Shown in pieces: positions 10,048 through 25,702 of a stretch of 33,627 nt of DNA. The notes beneath the pieces are model-generated. The model worked only from the letters and a program-made list of their open reading frames with translations, made no database searches and was not told the DNA's origin. The stretch lies in the NCBI GenBank assembly GCA_016784085.1, contig JADHVH010000002.1, positions 1-33,627 of the forward strand. The letters are read 5' to 3'. This DNA comes from Candidatus Pacearchaeota archaeon. GTDB taxonomy: Archaea > Nanobdellota > Nanobdellia > Pacearchaeales > GW2011-AR1. Within the stretch, counting starts at the first letter, position 1; every line of letters begins with the position of its first letter. The translations under genes were made by a program, and so were the position numbers.

Positions 10048-10407
10048 ACTACAACCCTGGCAATTCTTGGGAAGAGTTTTATCCTTACATTTATGCATTC
10101 TACAAACAACTTTTTCATTTCTAAAATAAACACATAAATCATAAAGAACTTCCATCATATTTTTAGGATCATCAACAACTTTACTTGCTGCCTGTTTAAT
10201 CTTTTCTAATTCAGGTTTTGTAAATTTAAGCTCTCCACCACGCTTATCCTTTAAATATTGAGAAATAGCAGCTTCTGTAATTCCAAGTATTTCCGCAGCT
10301 TTTTTTTGATTCATTTTATGATCTTTTACAAAAGATTTTGCAAGTTCTCTTCTAAGAGCGGGAATCACATACCATACTTCTATTTCCTGGGGCATTATTT
10401 TTTTCAT
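10036..10407 (-). CDS. HTH transcriptional regulator with C-terminal Cys cluster (COG2522-like)
   Basis: EVWYVIPALRRELAK ... QKKAAEILGITEAAISQYLKDKRGG is an HTH. The C-terminus carries C-x11-C-x3-C-x10-C-x2-C-x-C (CVYF..CRMHKC..CQGCSLC). The gene is divergent from sufB. Confidence 0.6.
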   Translation of the reverse strand: MKKIMPQEIEVWYVIPALRRELAKSFVKDHKMNQKKAAEILGITEAAISQYLKDKRGGELKFTKPELEKIKQAASKVVDDPKNMMEVLYDLCVYFRNEKVVCRMHKCKDKTLPKNCQGCSLCK

Positions 10408-10457: not shown

Positions 10458-10469
10458 ATAGTTAACTAT
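10458..10469. promoter_or_regulatory. palindrome ATAGTTAACTAT in the regulator/sufB divergent promoter; candidate operator
   Basis: Same 12-mer as at 8893-8904. The half-site TATAGTTAA is repeated in tandem (10457-10465 and 10467-10475). It overlaps the TTTTTATATA TATA-like box at 10451-10460. Confidence 0.45.
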
Positions 10470-10482
10470 AGTTAATATATGC

Positions 10483-11832
10483 ATGAAAAATGTAAAATTC
10501 AAGTCAAAACCAGGTATTAGTGAGCAACTTGTAAGACAGATTTCTAAAGATAAAAAAGAACCTAAATTTATGTTAGATTTAAGATTAAGAGGATTAAAGC
10601 TATTCAATGAAATAAAAATGCCTAACTTCGGTCCAGATATTAGTGATTTAGATTTGGAAAAAATATCCTATTATGTTAGGCCAGATGCTAAAAAAGCAAA
10701 AAAATGGAAAGATGTTCCTAAAGAAATTAAAGATACTTTTGATAAGCTAGGAATTCCAGAATCTGAAAAAAAAGCATTGGCAGGTGTAGGTGCTCAATAT
10801 GAATCTGAAATAATTTATCATAATTTAAAATCAGATCTAGCTGAAAAAGGAGTTATTTTCTTAGATATGGATGAGGCTATTAACTTATATCCTGAGTTAA
10901 TTCAAAAATATTTTATGACTTCTTGTGTACCAATTGGTTTACATAAATTTTCTGCAATGCATGCAGCTGTTTGGTCTGGAGGAACTTTTATTTATGTTCC
11001 TAAAGGAGTTCAAGTAGAGTTACCTTTACAAGCTTATTTTAGAATGAATGAGAAAAATTCAGGTCAGTTTGAACATACTTTAATAATTGCAGATGAAGGT
11101 TCAGAAGTTCATTATATTGAAGGTTGTTCTGCACCTCTTTATTCAGAAGATTCTCTACATGCAGGATGTGTAGAAATTCATGTTTTAAAAAATGCAAGAG
11201 TAAGATATTCTTCTATAGAAAATTGGAGTAAAAATGTCTATAATTTAAATACCAAAAGAGCAGTAGTTCAAGAAAATGGAATTATTGAATGGGTAAATGG
11301 AAACCTAGGGGGTAAAAAAACAATGCTCTATCCATGTAGTTTACTTGTTGGAAAAAATTCAAAATCAGATTATATTGGAATTGCCTATGCAGGTAAGGCC
11401 CAATATCAGGACACAGGATGCAAAGTATATCATTTAGCTAAAAATACTACTTCAAATATTCTTAGTAAAGGAATTAGTTCTGAAAATGGAGTTAGTTCTT
11501 ACAGGGGTTTAGTTAAAATAAAAAAAGGATGTGAAAATTCAAAATCATTTGTAAAATGTGATGGCCTAATGTTGGATAATAAAAGTAAGGCTTTAACCTT
11601 TCCTGCAATGGAAGTTGAAGAAAATAATGTTGATGTAGCTCATGAAGCTGCAGTTGGAAAAATCGGAGAAGATCAACTATTTTATTTAATGTCAAGAGGA
11701 TTATCAGAAGAAGAGGCAACCAAAATAATAGTTTCAGGTTTTATAGAACCATTAATAAAAGAATTACCCTTAGAATATGCTGTAGAATTAAATAGACTAA
11801 TAGACCTTGAAATTGAAAAGTCGGTTATTTAA
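10483..11832 (+). CDS. sufB: Fe-S cluster assembly scaffold SufB
   Basis: Contains FEHTLIIADEGSEVHYIEGCSAP and the C-terminal beta-helix region DVAHEAAVGKIGEDQLFYLMSRGLSEEEA. Confidence 0.93.
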   Translation: MKNVKFKSKPGISEQLVRQISKDKKEPKFMLDLRLRGLKLFNEIKMPNFGPDISDLDLEKISYYVRPDAKKAKKWKDVPKEIKDTFDKLGIPESEKKALAGVGAQYESEIIYHNLKSDLAEKGVIFLDMDEAINLYPELIQKYFMTSCVPIGLHKFSAMHAAVWSGGTFIYVPKGVQVELPLQAYFRMNEKNSGQFEHTLIIADEGSEVHYIEGCSAPLYSEDSLHAGCVEIHVLKNARVRYSSIENWSKNVYNLNTKRAVVQENGIIEWVNGNLGGKKTMLYPCSLLVGKNSKSDYIGIAYAGKAQYQDTGCKVYHLAKNTTSNILSKGISSENGVSSYRGLVKIKKGCENSKSFVKCDGLMLDNKSKALTFPAMEVEENNVDVAHEAAVGKIGEDQLFYLMSRGLSEEEATKIIVSGFIEPLIKELPLEYAVELNRLIDLEIEKSVI

Positions 11833-14133: not shown

Positions 14134-14862
14134 ATGAAATTTCTAGAAATAAAAAATTTACATGTAGAAGTTGAAGGTAAAAAAATCCTAAATGGAATTA
14201 ACCTTGAATTAGAAAAAGGAAAAGTAGTTGCTCTAATGGGCCCTAATGGTTCTGGAAAATCAACTCTGGCAAATGTTCTAATGGGTCATCCAAAATATAA
14301 AATCACAAAAGGAAAAATATTCTTTTTAGGAAAAGATCTTTCAAAGCTAAGTCCAGATAAAAGAGCTAATTTAGGGTTATTTTTATCTTTTCAAAATCCT
14401 CAGGAAATAGATGGGGTCAAAGTTTTTAATTTTCTTAAACAATCATATAATTCCACCAATAAAAAACAATTAATGACTTTCCAATTTCAAGATCTATTAG
14501 ATGAAAAAGCAGAACTTCTTAAGATAGATCAGAATTTTCTAGAAAGATATGTGAACAAAGGATTTTCAGGAGGAGAAAAAAAGAAGCTAGAAATATTACA
14601 GCTTCTAACACTAAATCCAAAAATGGCCATATTAGATGAAACAGATTCTGGCCTAGACATTGATGCTTTAAAAACAGTTTCAAAAGGAATTAAGAAGTTC
14701 TTAAACAAAGACAAATCAGTATTGATTATAACTCACCATCAAAAGATTTTAAACTATATTAATCCAGATCAAGTAGCAGTAATAAAGAAGGGCCAAATAG
14801 TAAAATTAGGCAAAAAAAGCTTAATAAAAAAAATTGAAAAAAAAGGTTATAGTTCTTTGTGA
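14134..14862 (+). CDS. sufC: Fe-S assembly ATPase SufC
   Basis: Walker A GPNGSGKST, HPKYKITKG, signature FSGGEKKK, Walker B ILDETDSGLD and H-loop ITHH. Confidence 0.93.
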   Translation: MKFLEIKNLHVEVEGKKILNGINLELEKGKVVALMGPNGSGKSTLANVLMGHPKYKITKGKIFFLGKDLSKLSPDKRANLGLFLSFQNPQEIDGVKVFNFLKQSYNSTNKKQLMTFQFQDLLDEKAELLKIDQNFLERYVNKGFSGGEKKKLEILQLLTLNPKMAILDETDSGLDIDALKTVSKGIKKFLNKDKSVLIITHHQKILNYINPDQVAVIKKGQIVKLGKKSLIKKIEKKGYSSL

Positions 14863-14866
14863 AGTT

Positions 14867-15100
14867 TTATCTTCCCCCACAACCGCCACCACAACTTGAT
14901 CCTGTTGTTGCTCCACAATTAGATGATCCACAGTTATTTCCTGCAGTACATCCTCCTTGGGCTGCGTTAGGACAGCTTCCTGATTCACAAGACCCAGTAT
15001 AAGTATTATCCGTAGCATCTACACTTGTTATTGCTGCTGTTGCTAAACCTACTAGAACTAACAAGCCTACCATTATTGCTACTGTTACTAAAGTTTTCAT
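14867..15100 (-). CDS. exported Cys/Gly-rich peptide (77 aa, 8 Cys in the last 40 residues)
   Basis: Signal/TM segment MKTLVTVAIMVGLLVLVGLATAA, then GSCESGSCPNAAQGGCTAGNNCGSSNCGATTGSSCGGGCGGR. A GGAGGT Shine-Dalgarno-like box lies at 15110-15115 (plus-strand ACCTCC), 9 nt upstream of the ATG. Confidence 0.55.
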   Translation of the reverse strand: MKTLVTVAIMVGLLVLVGLATAAITSVDATDNTYTGSCESGSCPNAAQGGCTAGNNCGSSNCGATTGSSCGGGCGGR

Positions 15101-15118
15101 ATTTGTTTTTACCTCCTT

Positions 15119-15811
15119 TTAATTTACTATAAATAAACCATTCATACTACTATGGCCATGACCACATGGAACATTACAATAAAAGCTAAACGTACCTTGT
15201 TTATTAGCTATAAATTCTATAGTTATTTGATCTCCTTGATTAATAAATTCATTTATTTCAAAATCATATAAGGCTATTCCATGGGCTCCTTCAACACTTT
15301 CAATATTTAGTATAACTTGATCTCCCAAATTAACTTCTATTTTATTTGGAGAAAAATCCCAATTATTTGCAACTATATCAAATTCTTTTATTTCCCCTGT
15401 TTCTTCTACATTTTGAACAAGATTTCTTCCACTTGATTGCCAGGTATTCATTCCCCCATCTAGATCATAAATATTAGTATAACCTAATTCTAATAATTGG
15501 TGTGCAGATATGGTAGACATTCTTCCACTTCTACAATAAATAGCAATAGGTGTTGATTTATCTTCTGGAAGTTGATCTAAATAAGAATCCATATTTTCCC
15601 AATTATACGCGTTTAAATCTGTTCCCTCAATCTCTCCAATATAAGGAGTATGGGCATTAATAACATATACTTCTTCAGAAGAAATTAATTGTTCAAATTG
15701 ATCTGAACTTACAGAATTAATTTTATTTGGGTTTAAAAATACAAAAAAGAAAATAAGGATTACTACAAGTAATCCCCCTATTAAAAAAAATAAGTTATTT
15801 TGTTTTTTCAT
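15119..15811 (-). CDS. membrane-anchored rhodanese domain fused to a CuA-type cupredoxin domain
   Basis: Rhodanese active-site loop YCRSGRMS. The C-terminal H-x34-C-x3-C-x3-H-x2-M (HGIAL...FYCNVPCGHGHSSM) has exactly the CuA ligand spacing of cytochrome oxidase subunit II and N2O reductase. The ATG at 15811 (MKKQNNLFFLIGG) follows the upstream stop by 1 nt. Confidence 0.8.
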   Translation of the reverse strand: MKKQNNLFFLIGGLLVVILIFFFVFLNPNKINSVSSDQFEQLISSEEVYVINAHTPYIGEIEGTDLNAYNWENMDSYLDQLPEDKSTPIAIYCRSGRMSTISAHQLLELGYTNIYDLDGGMNTWQSSGRNLVQNVEETGEIKEFDIVANNWDFSPNKIEVNLGDQVILNIESVEGAHGIALYDFEINEFINQGDQITIEFIANKQGTFSFYCNVPCGHGHSSMNGLFIVN

Positions 15812-15812
15812 C

Positions 15813-16235
15813 TTATAAACTAGGATATTTTTCCTCAATGATTCTTTCGATGGCCTCTAATTCACCTGTTTTTTCAGCTATAGCTTCTGCAAAATATTCT
15901 TTAAGATAAGGATTTCCATGACCTTCTAAAATTTCTCCAATACATTCTCCACAAGGATGAACTCCATTAACTAAATCTTCTAGACAACTACATTCAGCAC
16001 CTTCTCCATGTCCAGGTGATTTTTCAATACAATATGTGCATGGTTTTTCAAGACAACATCTATACATACCATTAGATAACATAGTTCCCTGGATAGATGT
16101 TTTTAATCCAATAAATTCTTCTCTTTGTTCAGTTACAGATGCACTACCTGGAGCTGTGAATATTGCTATTAAAATAGCTACTAAGAAAACAGCTGTGATT
16201 AGATAACCTCCTTTTTGTTTCATATTTTTCATCAT
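15813..16235 (-). CDS. exported Cys/His-rich protein (9 Cys), function unknown
   Basis: N-terminal TM/signal segment, then RCCLEKPCTYCIEKSPGHGEGAECSCLEDLVNGVHPCGECIGEILEGHG. ATGA overlap with the upstream gene. Confidence 0.55.
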   Translation of the reverse strand: MMKNMKQKGGYLITAVFLVAILIAIFTAPGSASVTEQREEFIGLKTSIQGTMLSNGMYRCCLEKPCTYCIEKSPGHGEGAECSCLEDLVNGVHPCGECIGEILEGHGNPYLKEYFAEAIAEKTGELEAIERIIEEKYPSL

Positions 16236-16687
16236 ATTTTCATAAATGTGGATGTTTTTCCATCTTTAATTGCATAAATTATCCATTGACCACTTTTAAT
16301 TCCAGGCATACCAGGACTACCTGCAGGCATATTTGGAAGAGAAATACCATCAATATCTGGTTGTTCTTCTAATAATTTATTTATAGCTTCAATTGGAATG
16401 TGTCCTTCAATAAAATAATCTCCCACAATAGCTGTATGACAACTTTCCATTGATCTTGGAATATTATATTCTTCTTTTATAGCCTGCATATCCTCAGTCA
16501 TTATTGTTTCTGTTAAAAATCCTTTATTTTGAATATAGGGGATCCATTTTGCACAACAACCACAATTAGCAGATTTATATACAGTCATAGGAATTTTATC
16601 ACTTACAACATTACCAGTAGAAACCACATAGGTTGTTGAAACAGCAATCAAAATTACAATTAAAATAAAAATATTTTTTCCATTCAT
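16232..16687 (-). CDS. copG: DUF411 / CopG-family copper-resistance metal-binding protein
   Basis: Contains YKSANCGCCAKW (the CxCC motif), ESCHTAIV, IEGHIP and NMPAGSPGMPG. Signal anchor at the N-terminus. Confidence 0.8.
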   Translation of the reverse strand: MNGKNIFILIVILIAVSTTYVVSTGNVVSDKIPMTVYKSANCGCCAKWIPYIQNKGFLTETIMTEDMQAIKEEYNIPRSMESCHTAIVGDYFIEGHIPIEAINKLLEEQPDIDGISLPNMPAGSPGMPGIKSGQWIIYAIKDGKTSTFMKI

Positions 16688-16861
16688 TTAACAACCACCA
16701 ACCATTCCACCATAACCACTTGCAGCTTGTTGTGCAGCAGCTTGACTAGCAGATAAAGTACTTTGAGCTGTTGCTGCAGATCCTTGAAAGAATACTACAT
16801 ATAAAACTAATATTCCTAAAATTCCAATAAGGCTCCACAATGCAATTTGTCTATTATCCAT
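16688..16861 (-). CDS. 57-aa single-pass membrane peptide ending in GGMVGGC
   Basis: The ATG at 16861 has a GGAGG box at 16872-16876. Sequence: MDNRQIALWSLIGILGILVLYVVFFQGSAATAQSTLSASQAAAQQAASGYGGMVGGC. The longer track start (16942) would overlap the upstream gene. Confidence 0.5.
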   Translation of the reverse strand: MDNRQIALWSLIGILGILVLYVVFFQGSAATAQSTLSASQAAAQQAASGYGGMVGGC

Positions 16862-16883
16862 ATTTATTTTTCCTCCGTTATTA

Positions 16884-17555
16884 TTAGCAGCCCCCAACCA
16901 TTCCTCCGCTTGTTTGACCTTTTTCAATATCTCTATAGTCATTAGATGTTAGGCTAATATAATCTGTAGATATTCCTTTACTAGCCATAATATCTGCCTT
17001 ACCCTGCATTATTCCTGGGAAAAATAATACTTTCCATTTTCCAACTTCTTCTAAGATTTCTTCATCAGTATATTCCTCTCCATGGTTTAAGATTAAATAT
17101 TTTGCAAGCCCCCTCATTGCATATGAATGAGCACAACCACATGCTGCTTGGCCATTTTCAAATATAATAGATCTAGCTCCACAACAATATTCACAAGAAA
17201 TTCCTCCGTGTGAAACATATAAGATATTAATATATCTCTCTAAGTCAGCACCTTCTAATGTTTCTGTCCTATCTATACTAGAAAGAAAGGAAATTGTTTG
17301 ATCTGCTAATTGAGGATCATTAGCACTCACAAAATCATAAGCAACACCTAATTCATCACCATATATTTCTGGAACGCCTGTTGGAATAATACTTGAAGCA
17401 GAAACTCCACTCTGTGAACTAGAATCTAATATAACATTAGAATTTGTTCCAAAATTAACATTAAATAATAATACTAAGATTAATACAGACAAAATAGCTA
17501 TTTGGCTATAAAATGTCAAATCGCTTTTTTTCACCTTGATTTTTTTTGTTTTCAT
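16884..17555 (-). CDS. exported Cys-rich protein (223 aa) ending in GGMVGGC
   Basis: N-terminal anchor, then the SCEYCCGARSIIFENGQAACGCAHSYAMRGL cluster and the C-terminal tail TSGGMVGGC. It is the first gene after the operator/TATA at 17573-17606. Confidence 0.6.
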   Translation of the reverse strand: MKTKKIKVKKSDLTFYSQIAILSVLILVLLFNVNFGTNSNVILDSSSQSGVSASSIIPTGVPEIYGDELGVAYDFVSANDPQLADQTISFLSSIDRTETLEGADLERYINILYVSHGGISCEYCCGARSIIFENGQAACGCAHSYAMRGLAKYLILNHGEEYTDEEILEEVGKWKVLFFPGIMQGKADIMASKGISTDYISLTSNDYRDIEKGQTSGGMVGGC

Positions 17556-17592
17556 GAATTTTTTAAGAAATAGTTTATTATAACTACTTTGG

Positions 17593-17606
17593 TGAAACTA
17601 GTTTCA
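17593..17606. promoter_or_regulatory. perfect 14-bp palindrome TGAAACTAGTTTCA, candidate operator 9 bp upstream of the TATA box (17573-17583)
   Basis: It is part of the 20-bp box CTTTGGTGAAACTAGTTTCA (17587-17606), which recurs with one mismatch at 20921-20940. Confidence 0.6.
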
Positions 17607-17660
17607 TAATGATTTATAAAAAATATGTTTGATTTTCACGTCGGTATTTTTAGAATTAAA

Positions 17661-19616
17661 TTAAATTCTTTTTCTTCTTAAGAGATTAGCATTGGCAATA
17701 ACTGTTATACTTGATAGGGCCATAGCAACTTCTGCAATCACCGGGTGTAAAACGCCTCCAACTGCAAGGGGAATTGCAACCACATTATAAGCAAATGCCC
17801 AGAATAAATTCTGTTTGATTTTTCCAAATGTTGCTTTACTCAATTCTATTGCTTGACAAACCCCTATTAAAGATCCTTTAGTAAGAACAATGTCTCCAGC
17901 CTCAATTGCAATATCTGTTCCAGTACCCATAGCAATTCCCACATTAGATTGTTTTAAAGCAGGGGCATCGTTTATACCATCTCCAACAAAAGCAACATAC
18001 GAATTACTTTTAGATTGAAGCCTCATTACAGCTTCTGATTTATCTCCAGGTAAAACATTTGCAATAACTTTCTTTATTCCAACTTCTTTAGCAATTGCTT
18101 GAGCAGTTTTTTCATTATCTCCTGTAATCATTACTGTAAAATAACCTTTCCTATGTAAATATTTCAATGCTGCAATAGAGTCTTCCTTAACAGAGTCTGC
18201 TACTGCAATTAAACCTAAAACCTTTTTATCTTTTTTAGAAGTCAAAATCATTACTGTTTTTCCTTGGCTTTCTAAGTGATCAATTTTCTTCACAAAATTC
18301 TTTAAACTAATTTTATTCTCTTTCATGAGTCTTTTATTTCCAATGATATATTTCTTACCCTGTATTGTTCCTTCAAGACCTCTTCCTAAAAGAGTTTTGA
18401 AATTTTTAACTAAACTATATTTTTTTAATTTTGAAAAATCAACTATTGCTTTTGAAAGAGGATGACTAGATAACTTTTCAAGACTTCCAGCAATTTTTAG
18501 AAATTTTTCTTTTTTAATACTTTTAGACAATTCAATATTGGTTACCTCTGGCTTACCTTTAGTTATAGTTCCTGTTTTATCAAAAGCTATAATTTTAATT
18601 TCTTTCATAGTTTGAATTGCTTCACCCTTTCTAATCAATATACCTCTTTTTGCACCCATTCCAGAACCAACAGTTAAGGCAATAGGTGTTGCTAAGCCCA
18701 AAGCACAAGGACAAGAAATTACTAAGACTGCTATAGATGCGCCAAAAGCATTATTCACATCTCCAAAAATCATCCATCCTATGAATGTTAGAATAGATAG
18801 GATTAATACTGAAGGAACAAATATATTTGTTATTTTATCTGCAAATTTTTGTATTGGAACCTTACTTCCCTGTGCATCTTCAACCAAATCAATTATATGT
18901 GCTAAAAAAGTATCTGAACCTATTTTTGTTGCTTTAACATAAAGAATTCCTTCTTGATTTATTGTAGCCCCTATAACATTATTTCCTTTTACCTTATCTA
19001 TAGGTAAGCTTTCTCCAGTAATCATAGATTCATCAACAGAACTTTGACCTTTAGTAACAATTCCATCTGTTGGAATTTTTTCACCAGGTTTAATAATCAT
19101 AATATCTCCAATTTTAACTTCTGAAATTGGGATTTCTACTTCCTTGCCATTTCTTATAACTGTAGCATTTTTCGCACCTAATTCTAATAGTTTTTTTATT
19201 TCTTGGCCAGCTCTCCCTCTTGCTTTAGATTCAATATATTTTCCAGTGATAAATATTGCCATTATCATTGCTGAAACTCCAGAATAATTTTCAAAACCAA
19301 AAATTAAACTAGCTATTCCTGTAAGATATGCTACAACTGTTCCAAGGGCAATTAAAGAATCCATATTAAAATAGAAGCTCAAGAAACCTCTAAATCCAGA
19401 TTTTAAAGTAGAAAATCCTACAATGAATATCACTGGAAAGGCAAAAATTAAAGTTAAAATTATAGTAATTTTTTCTTCAAATAACATTACTCCAAAAATC
19501 ATTGGAAGATACATTAATAAAATAAGGGGAATTGAAATTATCCAGCTCCAAAATAGTTTTCTCTTCCAACTATTAATTTCTTTTTCTTCTAAACTTTCTT
19601 CATTTTTGTGATCCAT
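17661..19616 (-). CDS. copA: P1B-1 type Cu(I)-exporting ATPase CopA (no fused N-terminal metal-binding domain)
   Basis: Contains [11 protein letters not shown] (CPC), [19 protein letters not shown], and the AFAYNVV (YN) and MALSSITV (MxxSS) copper-selectivity motifs. Confidence 0.95.
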
Positions 19617-19619
19617 TTT

Positions 19620-19832
19620 TTATTCAATTGAAGCTACTTTATATCCTGCTCTAGAAACAGCTTTCTTCAAATCATCTTGAGAAATATTTTCCTCTGCTTG
19701 AACAATTGCCTTATTTGTCATCATACTAACTCCTACAGATTCAACACCTTCAAGTTTATTCAAACTCTTCTCTATATTTAAAGCGCAAGAGGCACAATGC
19801 ATTCCTTCAATTTTTATTTTTATTTTTTTCAT
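19620..19832 (-). CDS. copZ: copper chaperone CopZ (HMA domain)
   Basis: MKKIKIKIEGMHCASCALNIEKSL carries the MxCxxC motif. Its ATG at 19832-19830 overlaps the upstream TGA (ATGA). Confidence 0.85.
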   Translation of the reverse strand: MKKIKIKIEGMHCASCALNIEKSLNKLEGVESVGVSMMTNKAIVQAEENISQDDLKKAVSRAGYKVASIE

Positions 19833-20203
19833 TTTACAATTAATGTTCCAACTCCCATTCCCATTGAACATGAAAACCTATAGGTTCCTTTTTTATTAGG
19901 AGTAAATTCAACATAATCATCAACATCTTTAAAATTTTTATATACTCCAAAATCTTTAATCACTAAAGATCTATAACATCCTCTTACTGTTTCATCTAAG
20001 TAGATTCTAACAGGTTGATTAACATTCACTTTTATAGTGTTTGGATTATAATTATAATTCTTCATACCAATAGTAATTTCTTGAACCCCTCCTGAACCTA
20101 AATTTCCAATAACATTCCCCATAATGGGAGAATCTTTTATTAAAAATAATCCAAATCCAACCACCAATAAAAACAGCACAAATAAAGCAATTTTATTTCC
20201 CAT
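19829..20203 (-). CDS. membrane-anchored cupredoxin-like domain protein (Cupredoxin_1 type often found next to copA)
   Basis: N-terminal anchor MGNKIALFVLFLLVVGFGLFLI, then YNPNTIKVNVNQPVRIYLDETVRGC ... GTYRFSCSMGMGVGTLIV. Confidence 0.7.
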   Translation of the reverse strand: MGNKIALFVLFLLVVGFGLFLIKDSPIMGNVIGNLGSGGVQEITIGMKNYNYNPNTIKVNVNQPVRIYLDETVRGCYRSLVIKDFGVYKNFKDVDDYVEFTPNKKGTYRFSCSMGMGVGTLIVK

Positions 20204-20204
20204 T

Positions 20205-20888
20205 TTACCCAAATAAAATACTCCTTGGCCCAAAGACCATAAACATAATTGTTATTAAGGTTAAAATTAAGCTTGCTAGTATAATTGGAAAATAATCTTC
20301 TTTAATTTCTCTTTCCCTTTCATACATTTCAAGATATACCATATAGTTAAGTGCAGCCATTATTGCTAAGGAAACTAAAAAGACTACTATTCCTGCTGCC
20401 CTAAGATGGTCATTTATCATCATAACTGCAGTCATAGCCCCCATTAATCCACCCATGAATCCAGACATCATTCCTTCCATTATTCCCATTATTCCGCAGC
20501 ATCTTCCGTTTTGAACTCCTAAAATAATCCCCACACTCATTCCAAATATACTTCCCCAAAACATCCCATTTGTAGCTGCAACATAATATCCTGCTAGAAA
20601 TCCTGAAATCATCCCAATAGTCATTCCAACCATCATTCCAGACATGCATGCAAATGTTTGATAAGCTTTAACCTGTCTTAGAGAAGGTAGAACAATAGCA
20701 TAACTTAAAATTGCAAAGAATATAAAAAACCCATATTTTGGAATAAAATTTTCAAAGTCTTTTAATCCTAAAAAATATAATACTATAAAAACAATAAATG
20801 AGGTAACTAAGGAATAGGTTACTGTTTTTATTATTTCACCTTCAACTCTAGAACCAGAGAGTTCTTTCACAAATTTTTTTGCAGACAT
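20205..20888 (-). CDS. polytopic Met/Gly-rich membrane protein, function unknown
   Basis: TM helices are loaded with Met: ACMSGMMVGMTIGMISGF and RCCGIMGIMEGMMSGFMGGLMGAMTAVMM. It is the first gene after the operator/TATA at 20911-20940. Confidence 0.6.
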   Translation of the reverse strand: MSAKKFVKELSGSRVEGEIIKTVTYSLVTSFIVFIVLYFLGLKDFENFIPKYGFFIFFAILSYAIVLPSLRQVKAYQTFACMSGMMVGMTIGMISGFLAGYYVAATNGMFWGSIFGMSVGIILGVQNGRCCGIMGIMEGMMSGFMGGLMGAMTAVMMINDHLRAAGIVVFLVSLAIMAALNYMVYLEMYEREREIKEDYFPIILASLILTLITIMFMVFGPRSILFG

Positions 20889-20926
20889 GTAAGTCTTATA
20901 ATAATTTTTTTATATAACCGCTTTGG

Positions 20927-20940
20927 TGTAACTAGTTTCA
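20927..20940. promoter_or_regulatory. near-palindrome TGTAACTAGTTTCA, second copy of the candidate operator, 9 bp upstream of the TATATAA box (20911-20917)
   Basis: CTTTGGTGTAACTAGTTTCA (20921-20940) matches 17587-17606 at 19 of 20 positions. It overlaps the stop codon of the TVP38/DedA gene. Confidence 0.6.
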
Positions 20941-21576
20941 ATGTTTTTTATTAAACATATTATCTAATAAATGGCCCAAAATAATTAAAAATAAACCTAC
21001 AACTCCAATAATTAAAAAGAATGCAAGTTGGTATCTAAAATCTGCATATCCAAAATAAGAGGCCATAAATGCTTTTGGAATTATTCCTAAAAGACTAGCA
21101 TAAAAATATGGTTTAAATTTAACATTACTTAAGATTCCTAAAGCATAGCTTATTAAATCAACAGGAAAAATTATTCTTAATAAGAAGATACTCCAAAATT
21201 GATTTTCTTTAGGGATTTTATTTTCAAGTTTGTAAATATCTTTTAAAGGAATTATTTTTTTAACTAATGCAACTCCCCATTTTCTAGAGATAAAAAATAC
21301 TAATACAGATCCCAATGTCCAGGAGAAAACATTAATAATACTTGCATAAAAAGGACCCATCATTTGAGAAACAACTGGGATTAGAGGCATTGAACTAATT
21401 GGGGCAAAGACCATTGCTATTTGTCCAATAAGAATATATGCTAAAATTCCCCAATAACCATTTCCCAAGAATTTTTTAAAAAAATCTAAATTAGATTGAA
21501 CAATATAGGATATAGTTAAAAATATAACAATTATTATTAAAAGTTCAAGAAAATATTTTGTTTTTTCTGATTTCAT
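20938..21576 (-). CDS. TVP38/TMEM64 (DedA/SNARE-associated, VTT-domain) membrane protein
   Basis: Contains FAPISSMPLIPVVSQMMGPFYASIINVFSWTLGSVLVFFISRKWG, and the topology is typical of the family. Confidence 0.75.
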   Translation of the reverse strand: MKSEKTKYFLELLIIIVIFLTISYIVQSNLDFFKKFLGNGYWGILAYILIGQIAMVFAPISSMPLIPVVSQMMGPFYASIINVFSWTLGSVLVFFISRKWGVALVKKIIPLKDIYKLENKIPKENQFWSIFLLRIIFPVDLISYALGILSNVKFKPYFYASLLGIIPKAFMASYFGYADFRYQLAFFLIIGVVGLFLIILGHLLDNMFNKKH

Positions 21577-22058
21577 CTTCTTAAAACAACAATATTATTC
21601 ATTCCACGTCTTTTACGTTCTACAATTTGTTTAGCTTCAAGTTTATCAAGAAGTCGAGTAGTTTTAACCTTACCAATTTCAAGCTTTTCCATTAAAGTTT
21701 TTTGAAATATAGCTCCATTTTCTTTTTCAAGAAAGTTAACAACTCTTTTTTCATCTCTATCAAGTTTAGATTTATCAATTTTTTTTCTTTTTGCTTTAAT
21801 AGTTTTAGTTTTAACCACAATTTTTTCTTTAGGTTTTGTAAAGATCAAAACAATTGCAATAAGAACTAATAATCCAACAATAGCTAAAGCAAGATATGTT
21901 TGTTGATTTACTGTTTGACTCATTGGACAACTTAACGCATGTTCACCTGTACAACTTAATGAAACAACTTGTCTAAGTGCTTTTTGAAATAATAAAACAA
22001 TTGCGATTAATACTGCTGAAATTCCAAGCATGATATATCCTACATATTTATTTTCCAT
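21573..22058 (-). CDS. membrane-tethered winged-helix transcriptional regulator
   Basis: Two TM helices flank the loop SLSCTGEHALSCPMSQ. A basic linker follows, then a C-terminal wHTH (RVVNFLEKENGAIFQKTLMEKLEIGKVKTTRLLDKLEAKQIVERKRRG). Both neighbours overlap it. Confidence 0.65.
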   Translation of the reverse strand: MENKYVGYIMLGISAVLIAIVLLFQKALRQVVSLSCTGEHALSCPMSQTVNQQTYLALAIVGLLVLIAIVLIFTKPKEKIVVKTKTIKAKRKKIDKSKLDRDEKRVVNFLEKENGAIFQKTLMEKLEIGKVKTTRLLDKLEAKQIVERKRRGMNNIVVLRR

Positions 22059-22569
22059 TTTCTAAATTAAGATCTATTTTACATACAGTTGGCCTTGTTA
22101 ATAAAACTATTGCTGTAATTAAAAAAGCTGCAGAAATAAATTGCAATTCCAGACCATAAAGAGGTAGGCTACTTAGAGTTGCAGATATCCCAAATATCCC
22201 TATAAAAGCAGGAAAAAAACCTGCAAAGCAACCAGGACAAGCCCCCCCTAAAATTCCCCCAAAAACTCCTAAAATACCCAAGCCTTCTTCCCCTTTAGAA
22301 TTTATAGATTTCCAATCTTGGAATTTTATTGCAGTAAGGTTAATAGTTAATGCAATTAAAAACGGAATTAATAAAAAATTAAAAAATACAAAGGGAATCA
22401 AAAACCAAGCCTTAAATGAAGTAAATAAAGTTGGTAAAGTTGTCTTAAAATCATTTAAGAAAAAATTCAATAAAAGATATGCTAAAAAAATAATAATAAA
22501 AGAAAAAATATAGGGCTTTGTCAAAATAGATTTTTTTATAGCAAACTTCCTATTTTGATTTAGCCACAT
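22048..22569 (-). CDS. polytopic membrane protein with intramembrane CPGC motif
   Basis: About four TM helices. Contains GGILGGACPGCFAGFFPAFIGIFG. It starts 15 nt after the DsbA-like gene. Confidence 0.55.
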   Translation of the reverse strand: MWLNQNRKFAIKKSILTKPYIFSFIIIFLAYLLLNFFLNDFKTTLPTLFTSFKAWFLIPFVFFNFLLIPFLIALTINLTAIKFQDWKSINSKGEEGLGILGVFGGILGGACPGCFAGFFPAFIGIFGISATLSSLPLYGLELQFISAAFLITAIVLLTRPTVCKIDLNLENGK

Positions 22570-22583
22570 TTTAAAATAAAAAA

Positions 22584-23282
22584 TTAAACACCTGAAGTGA
22601 ATAAAGCATCATGCATACCCCAATAATCTCCTTGTTCTCCAGCACATCTAGCAGCTTCTGCAGCTTTTTGAGCTTTAGCATGGAAATTTAATGGAAAATC
22701 TTTGAACACCATTTTTACTTTTCCAGTATCAACATATTCAGATAATAGTTGTGGATAAGTTTGAGCAAAGTGTCTTCCACAATATGGGCATTCATAGTCT
22801 GAGAATTCAACAATTGTAACTGGAGCATTTGAATCTCCTTTTACAGGAGAATCTCCAATTTCAACATCAATTCTAGCCTCATTAGTTGCAGTTCCAGATA
22901 ATTCTTCTTCAATAATTTGTTGAAATACTGAGAAAGGTTGAGCACCAGATAAGATTCTTCCATTAATAAAAAAACCAGGTGTTCCTGAAATCCCTATACT
23001 TGAACCATATTGAAGATCTGCGGAAACATTTGAACTATATTTTCCAGAATTAACACATTCTTCAAAATCTTTTGTGTCTAATCCTAAATCATCAGCATAT
23101 TGAACATATTTTGTAACTCCTTCTAATTGAGTACCGCTATTATCATTTACAACTTGTCCACTTGGCCTTATAGCTATTACAAGAACAATTACAAACAGAG
23201 CTGCAAATAAAAAAGTCCCTGCCTTCCAAAGAGTATCTTTTTTGATACTTATTGTTTTTTCTTCTTTTTTATGTTCAGTCAT
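22584..23282 (-). CDS. membrane-anchored DsbA-family thiol:disulfide oxidoreductase (domain order appears circularly permuted)
   Basis: APVTIVEFSDYECPYCGRHF (CPYC) ... CAGEQGDYWGMHDALF lies at the C-terminus. The normally C-terminal LGLDTKDFEECVNSGKY ... GISGTPGFFINGRILSGAQP lies near the N-terminus. A GGAGG box sits upstream at 23291-23295. Confidence 0.8.
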   Translation of the reverse strand: MTEHKKEEKTISIKKDTLWKAGTFLFAALFVIVLVIAIRPSGQVVNDNSGTQLEGVTKYVQYADDLGLDTKDFEECVNSGKYSSNVSADLQYGSSIGISGTPGFFINGRILSGAQPFSVFQQIIEEELSGTATNEARIDVEIGDSPVKGDSNAPVTIVEFSDYECPYCGRHFAQTYPQLLSEYVDTGKVKMVFKDFPLNFHAKAQKAAEAARCAGEQGDYWGMHDALFTSGV

Positions 23283-23393
23283 TTTTTACCTCCTTTAATT
23301 TAATTTGAATATTTTTTGAATTAATTAGAATAAGGGTTGAATTTATTAGTAAAATTCCCTATAAAAAGATTTCTATAGTTTAATTAGGCCGAT

Positions 23394-23768
23394 TTACTTA
23401 AGAGTTTTATCTCTAACCAAAAGAAGATTATGTGTTAGATCTTTTTTTCCAGAAGGAATTTCTTGAACATCTTTTACTTGGGAATATTCCGGCATCGTTG
23501 TTTTAAATCTGGGAAAATATATTTCTCCTGAGTCAATCCAGAATGCAACCCTTTTATCACCGCTTGCAGTAGTATTTTTTTGGCCATGACAAACTCTTTC
23601 AAATTGACTATCCAACATTTCAGCAGCTTCTGTTTCTGTAGGAAACCTCCATTGTTCTCTTGCTAAAAAAGACCCTACATTAATAATGTCTCCTGCAGTT
23701 TTAAAATCATATGCTCCCGGAATTAAAAGAAATGCTTTATTCTCAGTATAAAATCTTAAGTTAGCCAT
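23394..23768 (-). CDS. hypothetical protein, weak DUF1566 (Lcl C-terminal)-like pattern
   Basis: EQWRFPTETEAAEML ... RVAFWIDSGEIYF ... LLLVRD resembles the WRLPT..EL / aW.v..G / vRcVR pattern of DUF1566. This is from memory only. Confidence 0.4.
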   Translation of the reverse strand: MANLRFYTENKAFLLIPGAYDFKTAGDIINVGSFLAREQWRFPTETEAAEMLDSQFERVCHGQKNTTASGDKRVAFWIDSGEIYFPRFKTTMPEYSQVKDVQEIPSGKKDLTHNLLLVRDKTLK

Positions 23769-23837
23769 AAAAAATTAATCAATCAAACCTTTTTAAGAAT
23801 TATTGCATTTCAAAATAGCATCATAAAAAACCAGTTT

Positions 23838-24296
23838 TTAATCCACTACCTCTATTAATTCAGATTTAGAGATTTTTTCCAATCTTCCCTTAGTTTCTGC
23901 TAGTTTAGATTGAGTATCTGAGAAAATTTTTATATTACTCCAGGCATCTTCTTCTTCATTTTCAAGACCTTGAGTCACATTTGAATAACGCAAGTTAACA
24001 AAAGAACCAAATAAATAAACTATATCTTCATCTGAGCCATATTTTGCTTTTCCATAACCCCCTTGAGAGGTGGATCTTTCAGTAAGCAAGTGAACTATAT
24101 TATTTGAAGAGTTTTCTAAAACATCATAACCTCTACTAACCCCATGATAAGTTCCCTTTACCAAACAGTTAATTTTTTGGGTTGAAGCAAGGCTCCATTT
24201 ATAATTAAATAATTTCAAGGCGGGAGAACCCTTTAAAGAGTACTTTTTCATGAGAAAAGGATTATCTATTTTTTGAATTTGTTTTTGATTTTCCAT
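23838..24296 (-). CDS. hypothetical protein (152 aa)
   Basis: ORF in a tight co-directional array, 5 nt after the upstream gene. I recognise no motif. Confidence 0.45.
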   Translation of the reverse strand: MENQKQIQKIDNPFLMKKYSLKGSPALKLFNYKWSLASTQKINCLVKGTYHGVSRGYDVLENSSNNIVHLLTERSTSQGGYGKAKYGSDEDIVYLFGSFVNLRYSNVTQGLENEEEDAWSNIKIFSDTQSKLAETKGRLEKISKSELIEVVD

Positions 24297-24301
24297 TTTA
24301 A

Positions 24302-24580
24302 TTACGCTCTTTTTCCTGCCTTTCGATAAAGGTTTAAATCATCTCTTGGAACATAAATAAACATTGTTCCCTGATAATCAATATTTTTTAGAATATTTTG
24401 CATAGAATTGTTTCTTTCCTCATAGAATTTCCCTTTTGGTTTTGTAGCCAATACAATTCCTTCTGTTTCTGCAAAAGCTATCCAATGATCTAATAATCCT
24501 TCTAGTTTCCCCATATTAAGCATTTCCTGAAATACCCTATAATGGGGTGATTTTTGCATTTGCCATTCTGTTTTTGTCAT
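24302..24580 (-). CDS. hypothetical protein (92 aa)
   Basis: ORF starting 1 nt after the upstream stop. I recognise no motif. Confidence 0.45.
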   Translation of the reverse strand: MTKTEWQMQKSPHYRVFQEMLNMGKLEGLLDHWIAFAETEGIVLATKPKGKFYEERNNSMQNILKNIDYQGTMFIYVPRDDLNLYRKAGKRA

Positions 24581-24581
24581 T

Positions 24582-24881
24582 TTAATTGTCCACCATTTCT
24601 CCTTTACTATTATAGTGTGTTGTTGCTATTGGTTTTTGATTTCCATCAATCCAAACTAAATCTGTAACCCAATAATATGCATTGTCAAATCCACCACCAC
24701 CAATATTTACCTCTGTAAAATCAGGTTCTTTAATTCCCAAATGGTTTAATTTTAGTTTATAGTAGGGGGCTCTTTCCTTTTTTCTATCCCTTGAAATTAA
24801 ATTTTCTGCTAAACCTACAACTTTTTCAAGTTGGGAAGTTGTTATTTTCTTCAAGTTTATATTTATTCTATGATCTCTCAT
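24582..24881 (-). CDS. hypothetical protein (99 aa)
   Basis: First ORF of the four-gene array, divergent from the TrmB gene. I recognise no motif. Confidence 0.45.
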   Translation of the reverse strand: MRDHRININLKKITTSQLEKVVGLAENLISRDRKKERAPYYKLKLNHLGIKEPDFTEVNIGGGGFDNAYYWVTDLVWIDGNQKPIATTHYNSKGEMVDN

Positions 24882-24943: not shown

Positions 24944-25702
24944 ATGAATAAACAAATATTAAAAGACGCCGGATTAACTGAGGGAGAAATAAAGGTTTAC
25001 TTGGCTTTGCTAGAGTTAGGAGACACAACTACTGGGCCCTTAGTTGATAAATCTGGAGTTGCAAGATCAATTGTTTACCAAATACTAGAAAGATTAATTG
25101 AAAAAGGTCTTGCCTCATATATTGTTAAGGATAAAACAAAATATTATCAGGCCGCAGACCCAAATAAATTATTAGATTATGCTCAAAAAAGAAAAGAAGA
25201 AATAGATAATAATGTTAAAGAAATTGAAAAAATTCTTCCAGATCTACTTTCTAAAAAAAAGTTAAAAGATACTAGTAGTGCTAAAATTTATTTTGGAATG
25301 AAAGGAATTAGAACAGCTCATGAAGGCACTTATAGACTAAAAAAAGGTGAATCATTTTATTATTTAGGTATTCCTGCCAGTCAGCCAGAGGAACAGCATA
25401 TTTATTGGAAAAAAGATCATTTAAGAAGAATTAAAGCAGGCATAAAATCTCAGGTATTATTTAATAGAGATACAGATCCAGAAATTATGAAAAATAGGAA
25501 TAGTTTCAAAGGGTGTGATGCAAGATATATGCCTAAAGGCATAACAACTCCTGCCAGTTTTCTAATTTATAAAGACACTGTTGTTATTTCGGTTCAAGAT
25601 CCCCAACAAATAGCTGTTGAAATTAGAAATCAAGATATTAAAGATTCTTTTCAGGCTTATTTTGATAATTTTTGGAAGAAAAGTACAAAGTTAAAGAAAT
25701 AA
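24944..25702 (+). CDS. TrmB-family transcriptional regulator
   Basis: GLTEGEIKVYLALLELGDTTTGPLVDKSGVARSIVYQILERLIEKGLASY is a TrmB-type wHTH, followed by a C-terminal effector-like domain. Confidence 0.8.
   Translation: MNKQILKDAGLTEGEIKVYLALLELGDTTTGPLVDKSGVARSIVYQILERLIEKGLASYIVKDKTKYYQAADPNKLLDYAQKRKEEIDNNVKEIEKILPDLLSKKKLKDTSSAKIYFGMKGIRTAHEGTYRLKKGESFYYLGIPASQPEEQHIYWKKDHLRRIKAGIKSQVLFNRDTDPEIMKNRNSFKGCDARYMPKGITTPASFLIYKDTVVISVQDPQQIAVEIRNQDIKDSFQAYFDNFWKKSTKLKK

Follow-up and report, generated by a model that had tools for sequence, protein, structure and literature searches.

A conserved palindromic promoter element and a candidate membrane-anchored winged-helix regulator at copper-related operons of DPANN archaea

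The window analysed here is a whole stretch of 33,627 nucleotides from a Candidatus Pacearchaeota archaeon (contig JADHVH010000002.1). Its central part contains two operons, which are read from the minus strand, and a third gene cluster that runs into the promoter of the second operon. The genes are arranged as follows.

14867 to 17555, minus strand: operon 1, six tightly packed open reading frames for envelope proteins
17661 to 20888, minus strand: operon 2, encoding a Met-rich membrane protein (227 aa), a cupredoxin-like protein, CopZ (HMA) and CopA (Cu-type P1B ATPase)
20938 to 23282, minus strand: four-gene cluster (DsbA-like oxidoreductase, 173-aa CPGC membrane protein, wHTH regulator, DedA/VTT), running into operator 2
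21573 to 22058, minus strand: candidate cognate regulator of 161 aa, a membrane-anchored winged helix-turn-helix (wHTH) protein of the DUF7343 family

The products of operon 1 are Cys223 (with CEYCCGA...ACGCAHS), an 84-aa protein, DUF411/CopG, Cys140, a rhodanese-cupredoxin fusion and a 77-aa Cys/Gly-rich protein. The operon is also matched by two 151-nt pieces from metatranscriptomes (16737-16887 and 17187-17337), such pieces being few overall and free of TSS information. In operon 2, CopA reaches 574.6 bits with TIGR01511 (cutoff 397) and so passes the model for Cu-type P1B ATPases. Its translation contains the CPC, YN(x4)P and MxxSS (MALSS) motifs of a copper-exporting P1B-1 ATPase, the assignment of these transmembrane motifs to this metal being presumed. 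Cys223, the Met-rich 227-aa protein, Cys140 and the membrane protein mem173 match no Pfam or NCBIfam family, even at a Pfam E-value cutoff of 5. A superoxide dismutase and peroxiredoxins are also encoded nearby in the window.

Each operon is headed by a 20-bp box, and the gene assignments that an earlier note on this DNA had made for the two sites hold. Box 1 is CTTTGGTGAAACTAGTTTCA at 17587-17606 and box 2 is CTTTGGTGTAACTAGTTTCA at 20921-20940. These positions agree with the window sequence, and 19 of the 20 bases match, so that calling the boxes identical, as the note had done, is slightly too strong. The perfect 14-bp palindrome described for the first copy is present at 17593-17606, and reading each site on its minus strand confirms one promoter architecture common to both boxes.

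17593 to 17606, minus strand: operator 1, perfect 14-bp palindrome TGAAACTAGTTTCA, which fits the consensus TGWAACYAGTTWCA
17587 to 17592, minus strand: CCAAAG between operator 1 and the TATA box, a probable BRE (TFB recognition element) by its conservation and its place in an A-rich zone
17576 to 17583, minus strand: TATA box 1, TTATAATA, its first T 28 nt before the A of the ATG at 17555
20927 to 20940, minus strand: operator 2, TGAAACTAGTTACA, one base short of perfect symmetry
20921 to 20926, minus strand: CCAAAG, the probable BRE of promoter 2
20910 to 20917, minus strand: TATA box 2, TTATATAA, 29 nt before the ATG at 20888
17618 to 17623, minus strand: T6 run that lies between the copA stop codon and operator 1, 12 nt from the operator

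Site 1 thus reads TGAAACTAGTTTCA-CCAAAG-TAG-TTATAATA, with the ATG at 17555, and site 2 reads TGAAACTAGTTACA-CCAAAG-CGG-TTATATAA, with the ATG at 20888. The further 9-bp gap that had been placed after CACCAAAG is an error; the 9 bp are the distance from palindrome to TATA box, CCAAAG sits inside them, and the TATA box follows CCAAAG after only 3 nt. With about 28 nt from the TATA box to the ATG, the mRNA is predicted to be leaderless. The upstream DedA/VTT gene ends in operator 2, the first three bases of which (TGA) serve as its stop codon. Archaeal transcription commonly terminates at oligo-T runs, and the T6 run may possibly be such a terminator between the two operons.

The similarity of the two boxes proves little by itself, since pairs of 20-mers with at most one mismatch are common in shuffled sequence (45 of 100 dinucleotide shuffles of the AT-rich window). 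Generic repeat statistics were for this reason dropped as an argument, and a motif-specific expectation and conservation were used instead. The G+C-rich 20-mer itself, with up to three mismatches, is expected 0.02 times in the window and observed twice. No third core match was found in any promoter of the window; a match at 13211 (two mismatches) lies inside a gene, is at chance level and was rejected as an operator.

Conservation across species is the decisive evidence that the boxes are real. The exact 20-mer is found in 40 genome stretches, 37 from Woese-, Pace- or Nanoarchaeota and 3 bacterial, where about 4 matches would be expected by chance on a rough estimate. Every DPANN match (37 species genomes) has a TATA box 3 nt on, and the ATG usually follows 31 nt after the 20-mer. 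Homologues of Cys223, the first downstream gene, were gathered without reference to the motif, and 69 of their 74 evaluable promoters carry the palindrome at the same place with up to three mismatches. For the box-2-type operon, two of four Met-rich homologues collected independently of the motif are without the palindrome. Across DPANN the palindrome recurs at about 100 related promoters, and its distance from the TATA box is 9 nt in most of them, as in both window copies. The shared operator postulated in the earlier note is therefore well founded, and neither of the two findings that the note had named as evidence against it was made: the motif is not absent in relatives, as the Cys223 promoters attest, and instead of lying at many non-promoter sites, each of the 121 core matches found in 587 kb of DPANN sequence has a TATA-like box after it, a permissive test in AT-rich DNA. 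A palindrome at a fixed distance upstream of BRE and TATA box, conserved in orthologous promoters, is the arrangement of an archaeal activator-type operator, and the boxes show it.

Alignment of 62 non-identical promoters gives the consensus TGWAACYAGTTWCA, in which G2, A4, A5, C6, A8, G9, T10, T11 and C13 are invariant and upstream of whose position 1 the information content falls to about zero. CCAAAG is conserved in the same promoters at about 1-2 bits although it was not selected for. It is missing from divergent loci that retain the palindrome, and 47 unrelated DPANN promoters are rich in A between -7 and -3 relative to the TATA box, positions that CCAAAG for the most part occupies. For both reasons CCAAAG was rejected as part of the operator and is given a BRE-like role; the 20-bp box is probably a composite of a 14-bp operator and a BRE. 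Similar CCAAAA stretches precede two other TATA boxes in the window. The Cys223 promoters also have a moderately conserved AAACTATTTCTT between TATA box and ATG, which resembles a degenerate half-palindrome.

The genes found 3′ of the motif include those for Cu-type P1B ATPase, HMA chaperone, cupredoxins and DUF411/CopG, and these lend inferential support to the earlier proposal of a copper-related regulator. Homologues of Cys223 are the commonest gene directly 3′ of the motif, and the arrangement of operon 2 is also found there in four other loci (L022 and L027-L029). DsbA-like genes are direct targets in two loci (L005 and L023). A hydrophobic anchor stands at the start of most regulon products, in keeping with a sensor that faces outward.

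The palindrome is also linked to the gene of the membrane wHTH protein, which the earlier note had singled out as the local candidate. In 34 of 37 genome loci a full-length homologue is encoded no more than 4 kb from the motif, and of the 52 metagenome loci whose upstream flank reaches 700 nt or more, 42 have a homologue. This homologous gene often ends in the palindrome, its TGA stop codon being the first three bases, or is divergent from it. In five loci (L011, L025, L037, L114 and L118) the palindrome precedes the wHTH gene itself, and across 117 loci wHTH is the sole DNA-binding family among the co-occurring gene families. These observations support the candidate. The association of motif and gene in a two-by-two table (34/6/2/3) is marginal (Fisher p = 0.047; flanks of 3-4 kb). 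The TrmB-family gene of the window (24944-25702) was rejected as the regulator because none of the related loci has it together with the motif.

The candidate regulator consists of a first transmembrane helix (TM1), a loop with C36-x3-H40-x3-C44-P45-M46, a second helix (TM2), a Lys-rich disordered linker of about 27 residues and a C-terminal wHTH domain. Residues 101-159 match Pfam DUF7343 (PF24034) at 45.1 bits (cutoff 27.6), and this domain is precomputed for all 120 homologues among the matches listed. The AF2 model likewise predicts helices at 2-35 and 45-73 with hydrophobic cores, a disordered linker and the wHTH at 101-159. About 12 Lys/Arg residues follow TM2 and place the C-terminus in the cytoplasm; in a refinement of the first reading, the Cys/His/Met loop must face outward. 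As modelled, the protein would qualify as a transmembrane transcription regulator (TTR), a class whose members have a predicted DNA-binding domain and one or more predicted TM regions on a single chain. In the homologue alignment of the main clade, C36, H40, C44, P45 and M46 are invariant, and the recognition helix GKVxxTRLLDKLEAKQ is invariant among regulator homologues. In the wider family, 122 of 124 full-length representatives have at least two Cys in the loop at variable spacing, whereas divergent members do not all keep the His and Met.

The predicted wHTH fold matches MarR/ArsR domains, with the C-terminal ~65 residues superposing at 1.1-2 Å rmsd. Only the wHTH core superposes, since the model shows the wHTH bare, joined by a linker to the TM hairpin and without MarR-type dimerisation helices. 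The scores fall short of MarR membership, at 22.2 bits for MarR (PF01047; cutoff 24.6) and 24.1 bits for MarR_2 (PF12802; cutoff 27). Neither the regulator nor any window ORF scanned has an AsnC/Lrp or TRASH match of the kind that defines CopR. A PDB sequence search with the regulator gave nothing significant, and a literature search found no paper on DUF7343 or on the motif.

Taken together, the boxes probably form a conserved operator-promoter module that is bound by the membrane wHTH protein, which would sense copper on the outside and activate the two operons. The module consists of the palindrome TGWAACYAGTTWCA, directly followed by the BRE-like CCAAAG, 3 nt, a TATA box and a start codon about 28 nt on. 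A dimer of the 21573-22058 protein would most likely bind the palindrome, and the match of an invariant recognition helix with an invariant DNA motif is counted as support for this pairing. The short distance between the half-site centres, only 8 bp, counts against it, as does the lack of the MarR-type helices through which such a domain would dimerise. The regulator would be a one-component transmembrane transcription regulator made of a two-helix membrane hairpin, a linker and a cytoplasmic wHTH. Its outward loop may bind copper at the cell surface or report copper-driven thiol oxidation there, and the signal would alter dimer geometry or DNA affinity. Placed directly upstream of the BRE, the regulator could then help TFB and TBP to assemble, and the outcome would be that the Met-rich/cupredoxin/CopZ/CopA and the Cys-rich/DUF411 envelope-directed operons are switched on. 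Copper is the presumed signal, judging by sequence. The direction of the effect is the weakest step of the explanation: activation is proposed by analogy with Pyrococcus furiosus CopR, an activator whose semi-palindrome lies directly upstream of the BRE at copper-induced promoters (PMC7830388).

The strongest competitor, for which there is a real if lesser chance, keeps the same operator and the same membrane wHTH protein and makes the protein a repressor: the dimer would block TFB/TBP by sitting against the BRE, and copper or oxidation would release it. The operator does abut the BRE-like CCAAAG with no spacer, and the core promoter, with its good TATA box and conserved BRE-like element, looks strong and may work unaided, which agrees with repression by occlusion no less well than with activation. 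Repressors make up the majority of MarR/ArsR-type wHTH metal sensors, and in the Cys223 promoters AAACTATTTCTT could be a second site that blocks RNAP, an element that is, however, missing from window promoter 2. As far as the discussion in PMC7830388 goes, Thermococcus onnurineus CopR is reported as a repressor. Against repression, the palindrome overlaps neither the TATA box nor the start site, and sites upstream of the BRE are typical of archaeal activators. P. furiosus CopR, whose site has the same placement, activates (PMC7830388).

The operator and regulator may also be as proposed and the signal another one. In this case, which we regard as rather unlikely, the protein would respond to extracytoplasmic thiol/disulfide (oxidative) stress and not to copper, and the loop cysteines could form a reversible, redox-sensitive disulfide rather than a metal site. 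The family hallmark of a variably spaced Cys pair points this way more than the His and Met do, as do the DsbA-like oxidoreductases and many Cys-rich envelope proteins among the direct targets, and the SOD and peroxiredoxins of the window could be added. However, C-x3-H-x3-C-P-M is invariant in the main clade, Cys, His and Met form a typical ligand set of Cu(I), and the most prominent members of the regulon are CopA, CopZ, cupredoxins and DUF411. Since copper catalyses the mis-oxidation of disulfides, one signal does not exclude the other.

That the palindrome is a real operator of a different, unlinked transcription factor, and the wHTH gene merely a member of the regulon, is improbable. The pairing of protein and palindrome is indeed drawn from sequence; three motif loci (L010, L027 and L033) have no wHTH gene within the 8 kb examined, and the regulator's own cluster in the window has no operator upstream (23283-23393). 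However, no other DNA-binding family recurs in the 117 loci, the palindrome stands ahead of five regulator genes, the recognition helix is as invariant as the motif, and three loci in which the motif is absent near the gene (L115, L117 and L120) lack the wHTH gene as well. Finally, a repeat without regulatory function, be it due to chance, an RNA hairpin or terminator of the upstream gene, or a restriction or methylation target (it contains ACTAGT), has next to no likelihood and is effectively refuted by the conservation data: the shuffle result and the overlap of operator 2 with a stop codon agree with it, but the motif-specific expectation is low, the promoter position is fixed in more than 100 loci of many species, the motif is present also where the upstream gene is divergent, and an RNA element or terminator was rejected since Rfam and tRNA searches gave no match and the palindrome is not self-paired in predicted RNA folds with weak z-scores (-1.7 and -0.2).

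DPANN archaea are either not in culture or difficult to manipulate, and to our knowledge almost nothing is known of their transcriptional regulation. An operator-promoter module bound by the membrane wHTH protein would be a concrete pairing of cis-element and regulator for this group, and with nine invariant bases the consensus is sharp enough for genome scans and for delimiting the regulon. It would also place several abundant Cys- and Met-rich families that have no Pfam or NCBIfam model in the setting of copper and envelope thiol stress. More tentatively, and with the balance tipped slightly against so broad a claim, the protein may be the first extracytoplasm-sensing, membrane-anchored one-component copper regulator in Archaea, a minimal protein of hairpin-loop sensor, linker and wHTH that switches through metal-bridged dimerisation and whose invariant operator marks out a phylum-wide DPANN regulon for envelope copper and thiol stress. 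If true, this regulon would consist mostly of families of unknown function (Cys223, the Met-rich 227-aa protein, Cys140 and the CPGC and GLIPHIGC membrane proteins). Archaeal membrane-tethered one-component regulators would extend from motility control to metal sensing, with a small and tractable loop of about 25 residues. The 65-residue soluble domain and the 14-bp site also make it tractable to ask whether an archaeal factor can act on BRE/TATA promoters from the membrane.

Several known systems share parts of this arrangement. CusS and CopS are bacterial periplasmic copper sensor kinases of two-component phosphorelays with a separate response regulator. They too sense copper outside the membrane between two TM helices and control export and envelope-protection genes, whereas here there is no kinase and the sensing chain itself would bind DNA. 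The MarR/ArsR metal sensors (ZitR/AdcR, SmtB and AntR) resemble the candidate in the superposable wHTH and the short palindromic target. They differ from it in their dimerisation helices, in the Pfam and PDB sequence comparisons, which set it apart, and in their metal ligands, which lie in the cytoplasmic domain and not in the loop of a membrane hairpin.

The CopR regulon of Thermococcales and Sulfolobales (Lrp/AsnC HTH and TRASH; PMC7830388) is likewise an archaeal copper regulon with copA and a chaperone, has a palindromic or semi-palindromic operator directly upstream of the BRE at nearly all targets, and has its regulator gene adjoining the targets. CopR, however, is soluble and octameric and senses cytoplasmic copper via TRASH (PMC7830388), whereas the protein described here is membrane-anchored, lacks Lrp and TRASH domains and has its loop predicted outside. 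The P. furiosus cop-motif TTNNCAWWWTGNNAA (PMC7830388) is unrelated to the present palindrome.

The TTRs, among them the bacterial ToxR, CadC and TcpP and the Sulfolobus proteins ArnR and ArnR1, similarly combine anchor, sensor and DNA-binding domain in one polypeptide, and are presumed to regulate from the membrane (PMC10269533, PMC6396743). The census of TTRs mentions neither copper nor DPANN (PMC10269533). In ToxR and CadC an OmpR-type wHTH at the N-terminus is followed by one TM helix and a large periplasmic domain. ArnR, which controls the genes of archaellum and pili, begins with an HTH, continues with a HAMP-like/sensor region and ends in two TM helices (PMC10269533, PMC6396743). In the candidate regulator this order is reversed, with an N-terminal TM hairpin and a C-terminal wHTH, the putative sensor is a loop of only ~25 residues, and the predicted targets are genes linked to metals and thiols.

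The copper island carries two 20-bp boxes that are identical at 19 of 20 bases, and the sequence confirms the coordinates that an earlier note had given for them. Each belongs to a minus-strand promoter (site 1 and site 2), and the site 1 palindrome is 14 bp long and perfect.

17587-17606: box 1, CTTTGGTGAAACTAGTTTCA
20921-20940: box 2, CTTTGGTGTAACTAGTTTCA
Site 1, minus strand: TGAAACTAGTTTCA-CCAAAG-TAG-TTATAATA, ATG at 17555
Site 2, minus strand: TGAAACTAGTTACA-CCAAAG-CGG-TTATATAA, ATG at 20888

The spacing described in that note stands in part: 9 bp do separate the palindrome from the TATA box, but CCAAAG lies inside those 9 bp, and just 3 nt separate it from the TATA box. Site 1 occupies a 105-nt gap with copA on one side and six tightly packed minus-strand ORFs on the other. 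Site 2 heads the operon for a Met-rich membrane protein, a cupredoxin-like protein, CopZ and CopA, and overlaps the TGA stop codon of a DedA/VTT gene, whose three bases are also operator positions 1-3 (20938-20940). The same overlap is found in related DPANN loci (L005, L007, L016, L023, L025, L028 and L034) and in many metagenome loci, and in many relatives the overlapping upstream gene is that of the candidate regulator itself. It is a case of extremely compact genome packing. In promoter 1, a moderately conserved element, AAACTATTTCTT (0.3-0.9 bits), follows the TATA box ahead of the ATG (~17563-17574) and resembles a degenerate palindrome half; it occurs at the equivalent position in the promoters of L045-L124 that precede homologues of Cys223, the 223-aa Cys-rich protein encoded first after site 1, and is missing from promoter 2. 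Its role could be that of an initiator region or of a weak second site.

Genes of the window include diphthamide synthase, aIF5B and a TrmB-family regulator, and marine and estuary metagenomes contain near-identical contigs. A TTTAWAWA box stands 21-23 nt upstream of the ATG at other genes of the window, and its promoters read as archaeal and largely leaderless.

A pair of 20-mers with at most one mismatch arises in 45 of 100 dinucleotide shuffles of the window (29% G+C), so similarity by itself is insufficient. This specific G+C-rich 20-mer, however, is expected 0.02 times at up to three mismatches and is observed twice, both times in the same register relative to TATA box and start codon. 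Just two more 20-mer pairs of the window are near-identical. Both are coding and belong to ABC-transporter paralogues, namely the Walker-A regions of two ABC ATPases (2898-2918 and 14246-14266) and two MacB/FtsX-type permeases (4373-4393 and 5572-5592).

A different perfect 14-bp palindrome, TTAACTATAGTTAA, lies at 10462-10475, past the sufB TATA box and ahead of the ATG (0.02 matches expected by chance), flanked by 10036-10407 (minus) and 10483-11832 (plus). A divergent Cro/HTH_3-like gene uses the same intergenic region, and the palindrome may be where a repressor of the SUF Fe-S operon binds.

The 20-mer was sought exactly, with W permitted at two positions, in one genome per GTDB species. 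It was found in 40 stretches, 37 of them Woesearchaeota, Pacearchaeota or Nanoarchaeota MAGs and 3 bacterial, where our own rough estimate of the chance level is ~4 matches. In all DPANN matches, 3 nt and then a TATA box follow, and the ATG usually comes 31 nt after the 20-mer. Selection by the motif makes this genome set a biased sample.

Genes directly downstream of the 20-mer
Cys223 homologues: about 20 loci
Met-rich 227-aa protein: 4
'GLIPHIGC' membrane protein: 4
HMA/CopZ-type proteins: 3; cupredoxin: 1
DsbA-like oxidoreductases: 2
Small Cys/Gly-rich protein: 2
Small Cys-rich protein: 1

An unbiased sample of 80 metagenome loci was gathered through the Cys223 protein alone. The palindrome is present at the same position in 69 of the 74 evaluable Cys223 promoters with up to three mismatches (66 with up to two); four promoters truly have no palindrome near the gene, one has the variant TGTAACCAGTTACT, and three further loci are cut off by contig ends. 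The 62 non-identical promoters give the consensus TGWAACYAGTTWCA, in which G2, A4, A5, C6, A8, G9, T10, T11 and C13 are invariant. Information content is close to zero in the 20 nt upstream of palindrome position 1, and this sharp 5′ edge means that shared ancestry alone is insufficient to explain the conservation. The shared operator of the earlier note is supported by these promoters, sampled without the motif and with fixed TATA spacing; absence from relatives, which that note named as a refuting outcome, was not observed for them. The 12-nt core has 121 matches in 587 kb of selected DPANN loci (about 0.7 expected from composition), all followed by a TATA-like box under a test that is permissive in AT-rich DNA. 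Conservation is weaker for the operon of box 2: of the four Met-rich homologues chosen independently of the motif, just one has a good site and a second a degenerate one, and the remaining two have no site. At some promoters an extra half-site is fused upstream, ...CTAGTTTCA|TGAAACTAGTTTCA (L010 4742-4775, L022 36-69, L032, L062 and L100), forming overlapping palindromes and suggesting that two dimers may bind cooperatively there.

CCAAAG-N3 is conserved at 1-2 bits, with no selection for it in the sampling. CCAAAG is replaced in six divergent loci (L111, L112, L116, L121-L123), where the palindrome remains perfect and the TATA spacing is unchanged. In 47 unrelated DPANN promoters, positions -7 to -3 before the TATA box are A-rich (A = 81% at -3), and several unrelated DPANN promoters read CCAAA(A/G)-N2-3-TATA. 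From this loss and the A-rich zone elsewhere, we infer that CCAAAG is a BRE-like core-promoter element and that the operator is limited to the 14-bp palindrome.

The candidate for binding the palindrome is a 161-aa membrane-anchored wHTH protein (21573-22058, minus strand), already favored in the earlier note and now well placed by its genomic linkage within flanks of 3-4 kb. Of 37 genome loci, 34 have a full-length homologue (46-68% identity) no more than 4 kb from the motif, and homologues occur in 42 of 52 metagenome loci with at least 700 nt of upstream flank; none is found at the three bacterial 20-mer matches. The ending ...GMNNIVVL(K/R)x-TGA is very common for the regulator gene, its TGA being the first three bases of the palindrome, and at other loci the gene is divergent and shares the intergenic region with the motif. 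Because the site is symmetric, its other strand also leads into a TATA box and the regulator gene in L011, L037 and L114, and L025 and L118 have separate palindrome copies upstream of that gene. This arrangement is the usual signature of autoregulation, which it would suggest here. In L115, L117 and L120, the regulator gene is absent, and so is the motif near the Cys223 gene; the two-by-two association of motif and regulator (34/6/2/3) is marginal (Fisher p = 0.047). When all ORFs of 117 loci were clustered, the recurrent neighbors were Cys223, the wHTH protein, DUF411 and several membrane or Cys-rich families, with no second DNA-binding family among them. The TrmB gene of the window never recurs near the motif in related loci.

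The C-terminus of the wHTH protein matches Pfam DUF7343 (45.1 bits), MarR Pfam models stay below threshold, and no solved structure is significantly similar to it in sequence. Its AF2 model (mean pLDDT 73) has helices at 2-35 and 45-73, a disordered Lys-rich segment at ~74-100 and a canonical wHTH at 101-159, the core of which superposes on MarR/ArsR-type domains, including DNA-bound MftR, at 1.1-2 A rmsd. Among 33 homologues, the recognition helix GKVxxTRLLDKLEAKQxxERKRRGMNN is invariant, matching the invariant DNA site, and so are C36, H40, C44, P45 and M46 in the inter-helix loop. A Cys/His/Met ligand set suits Cu(I). The wider family forms 395 clusters (50% identity, E <= 1e-10), nearly all of 150-180 aa with full-length matches. 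At least two Cys occur in the loop of 122 of 124 full-length representatives, and divergent members vary in Cys spacing and keep C...CP[MAT][H]. With the wHTH necessarily in the cytoplasm and some 12 Lys/Arg after TM2, the loop has to face outward.

The products downstream of the motif agree with the copper-related regulon predicted earlier. CopA scores 574.6 bits against the copper-specific TIGR01511 (cutoff 397), and its translation contains the CPC, YN(x4)P and MxxSS motifs of copper-exporting P1B-1 ATPases. CopZ has an MHCASC motif, and the island also encodes two cupredoxin-like domains and DUF411 (CopG, a family for copper resistance). Almost every product of the two operons begins with a hydrophobic anchor, so the regulon would act in the envelope, which fits an outward sensor.

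Several other proteins of the island have unusual features. Cys223 and an 84-aa protein both end in GGMVGGC (16884-16904 and 16688-16708), with G217, M219, G221 and C223 invariant among Cys223 homologues; this end could be a C-terminal metal-binding or a processing/lipidation tag. Two uncharacterized membrane-protein families in or beside the regulon, a 173-aa protein with a CPGC motif (22048-22569) and the 'GLIPHIGC' family, have no Pfam or NCBIfam match, and by position the latter is directly controlled by the motif in L012, L013, L015 and L016. A DsbA-like protein (22584-23282) aligns with Thioredoxin_4 over two separate segments, in what looks like permuted order; 'Rcas_1661 family thioredoxin-like (seleno)lipoprotein' is its top NCBIfam match, under cutoff. 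The space separating the copper island from the divergent TrmB-family gene (23394-24881) holds a row of four small minus-strand ORFs (124, 152, 92 and 99 aa, no Pfam family), which the near-identical contigs conserve.

From comparative genomics and a structure model, with a handful of metatranscriptome fragments as the RNA evidence for the island, we propose a mechanism in which a dimer of the membrane-anchored protein would bind the palindrome, whose half-site centres are 8 bp apart, and its outward loop would sense copper. On its upstream side the BRE directly adjoins the palindrome, and bound regulator could aid TFB and TBP assembly. At copper-induced promoters of P. furiosus, the activator CopR has a semi-palindromic motif directly upstream of the BRE (PMC7830388). 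The least secure step is whether the regulator activates or represses: occlusion of the BRE, and with it repression, is nearly as plausible as activation, given that the core promoter appears strong and that Cys223-type promoters carry AAACTATTTCTT as a possible weak second site. A serious alternative to copper sensing is that the loop acts as a disulfide switch reporting copper-driven or oxidative thiol damage, as DsbA-like proteins are among the direct targets of the motif.

The literature searched makes no mention of DUF7343 or the palindrome motif, and the TTR census (PMC10269533) mentions neither copper nor DPANN. Bacteria and archaea are both known to have membrane-bound one-component regulators (PMC10269533). 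Two from Sulfolobus, ArnR and ArnR1, have been studied experimentally; they control surface structures and have the opposite domain order to the regulator described here (PMC6396743). The copper regulators known from archaea are soluble proteins of the Lrp/TRASH type (PMC7830388); the candidate here is membrane-anchored. An operator upstream of a BRE with a transmembrane transcription regulator as its candidate binder would combine known kinds and would not form a new category; placement of the operator directly upstream of the BRE is common to the CopR promoters of P. furiosus (PMC7830388).
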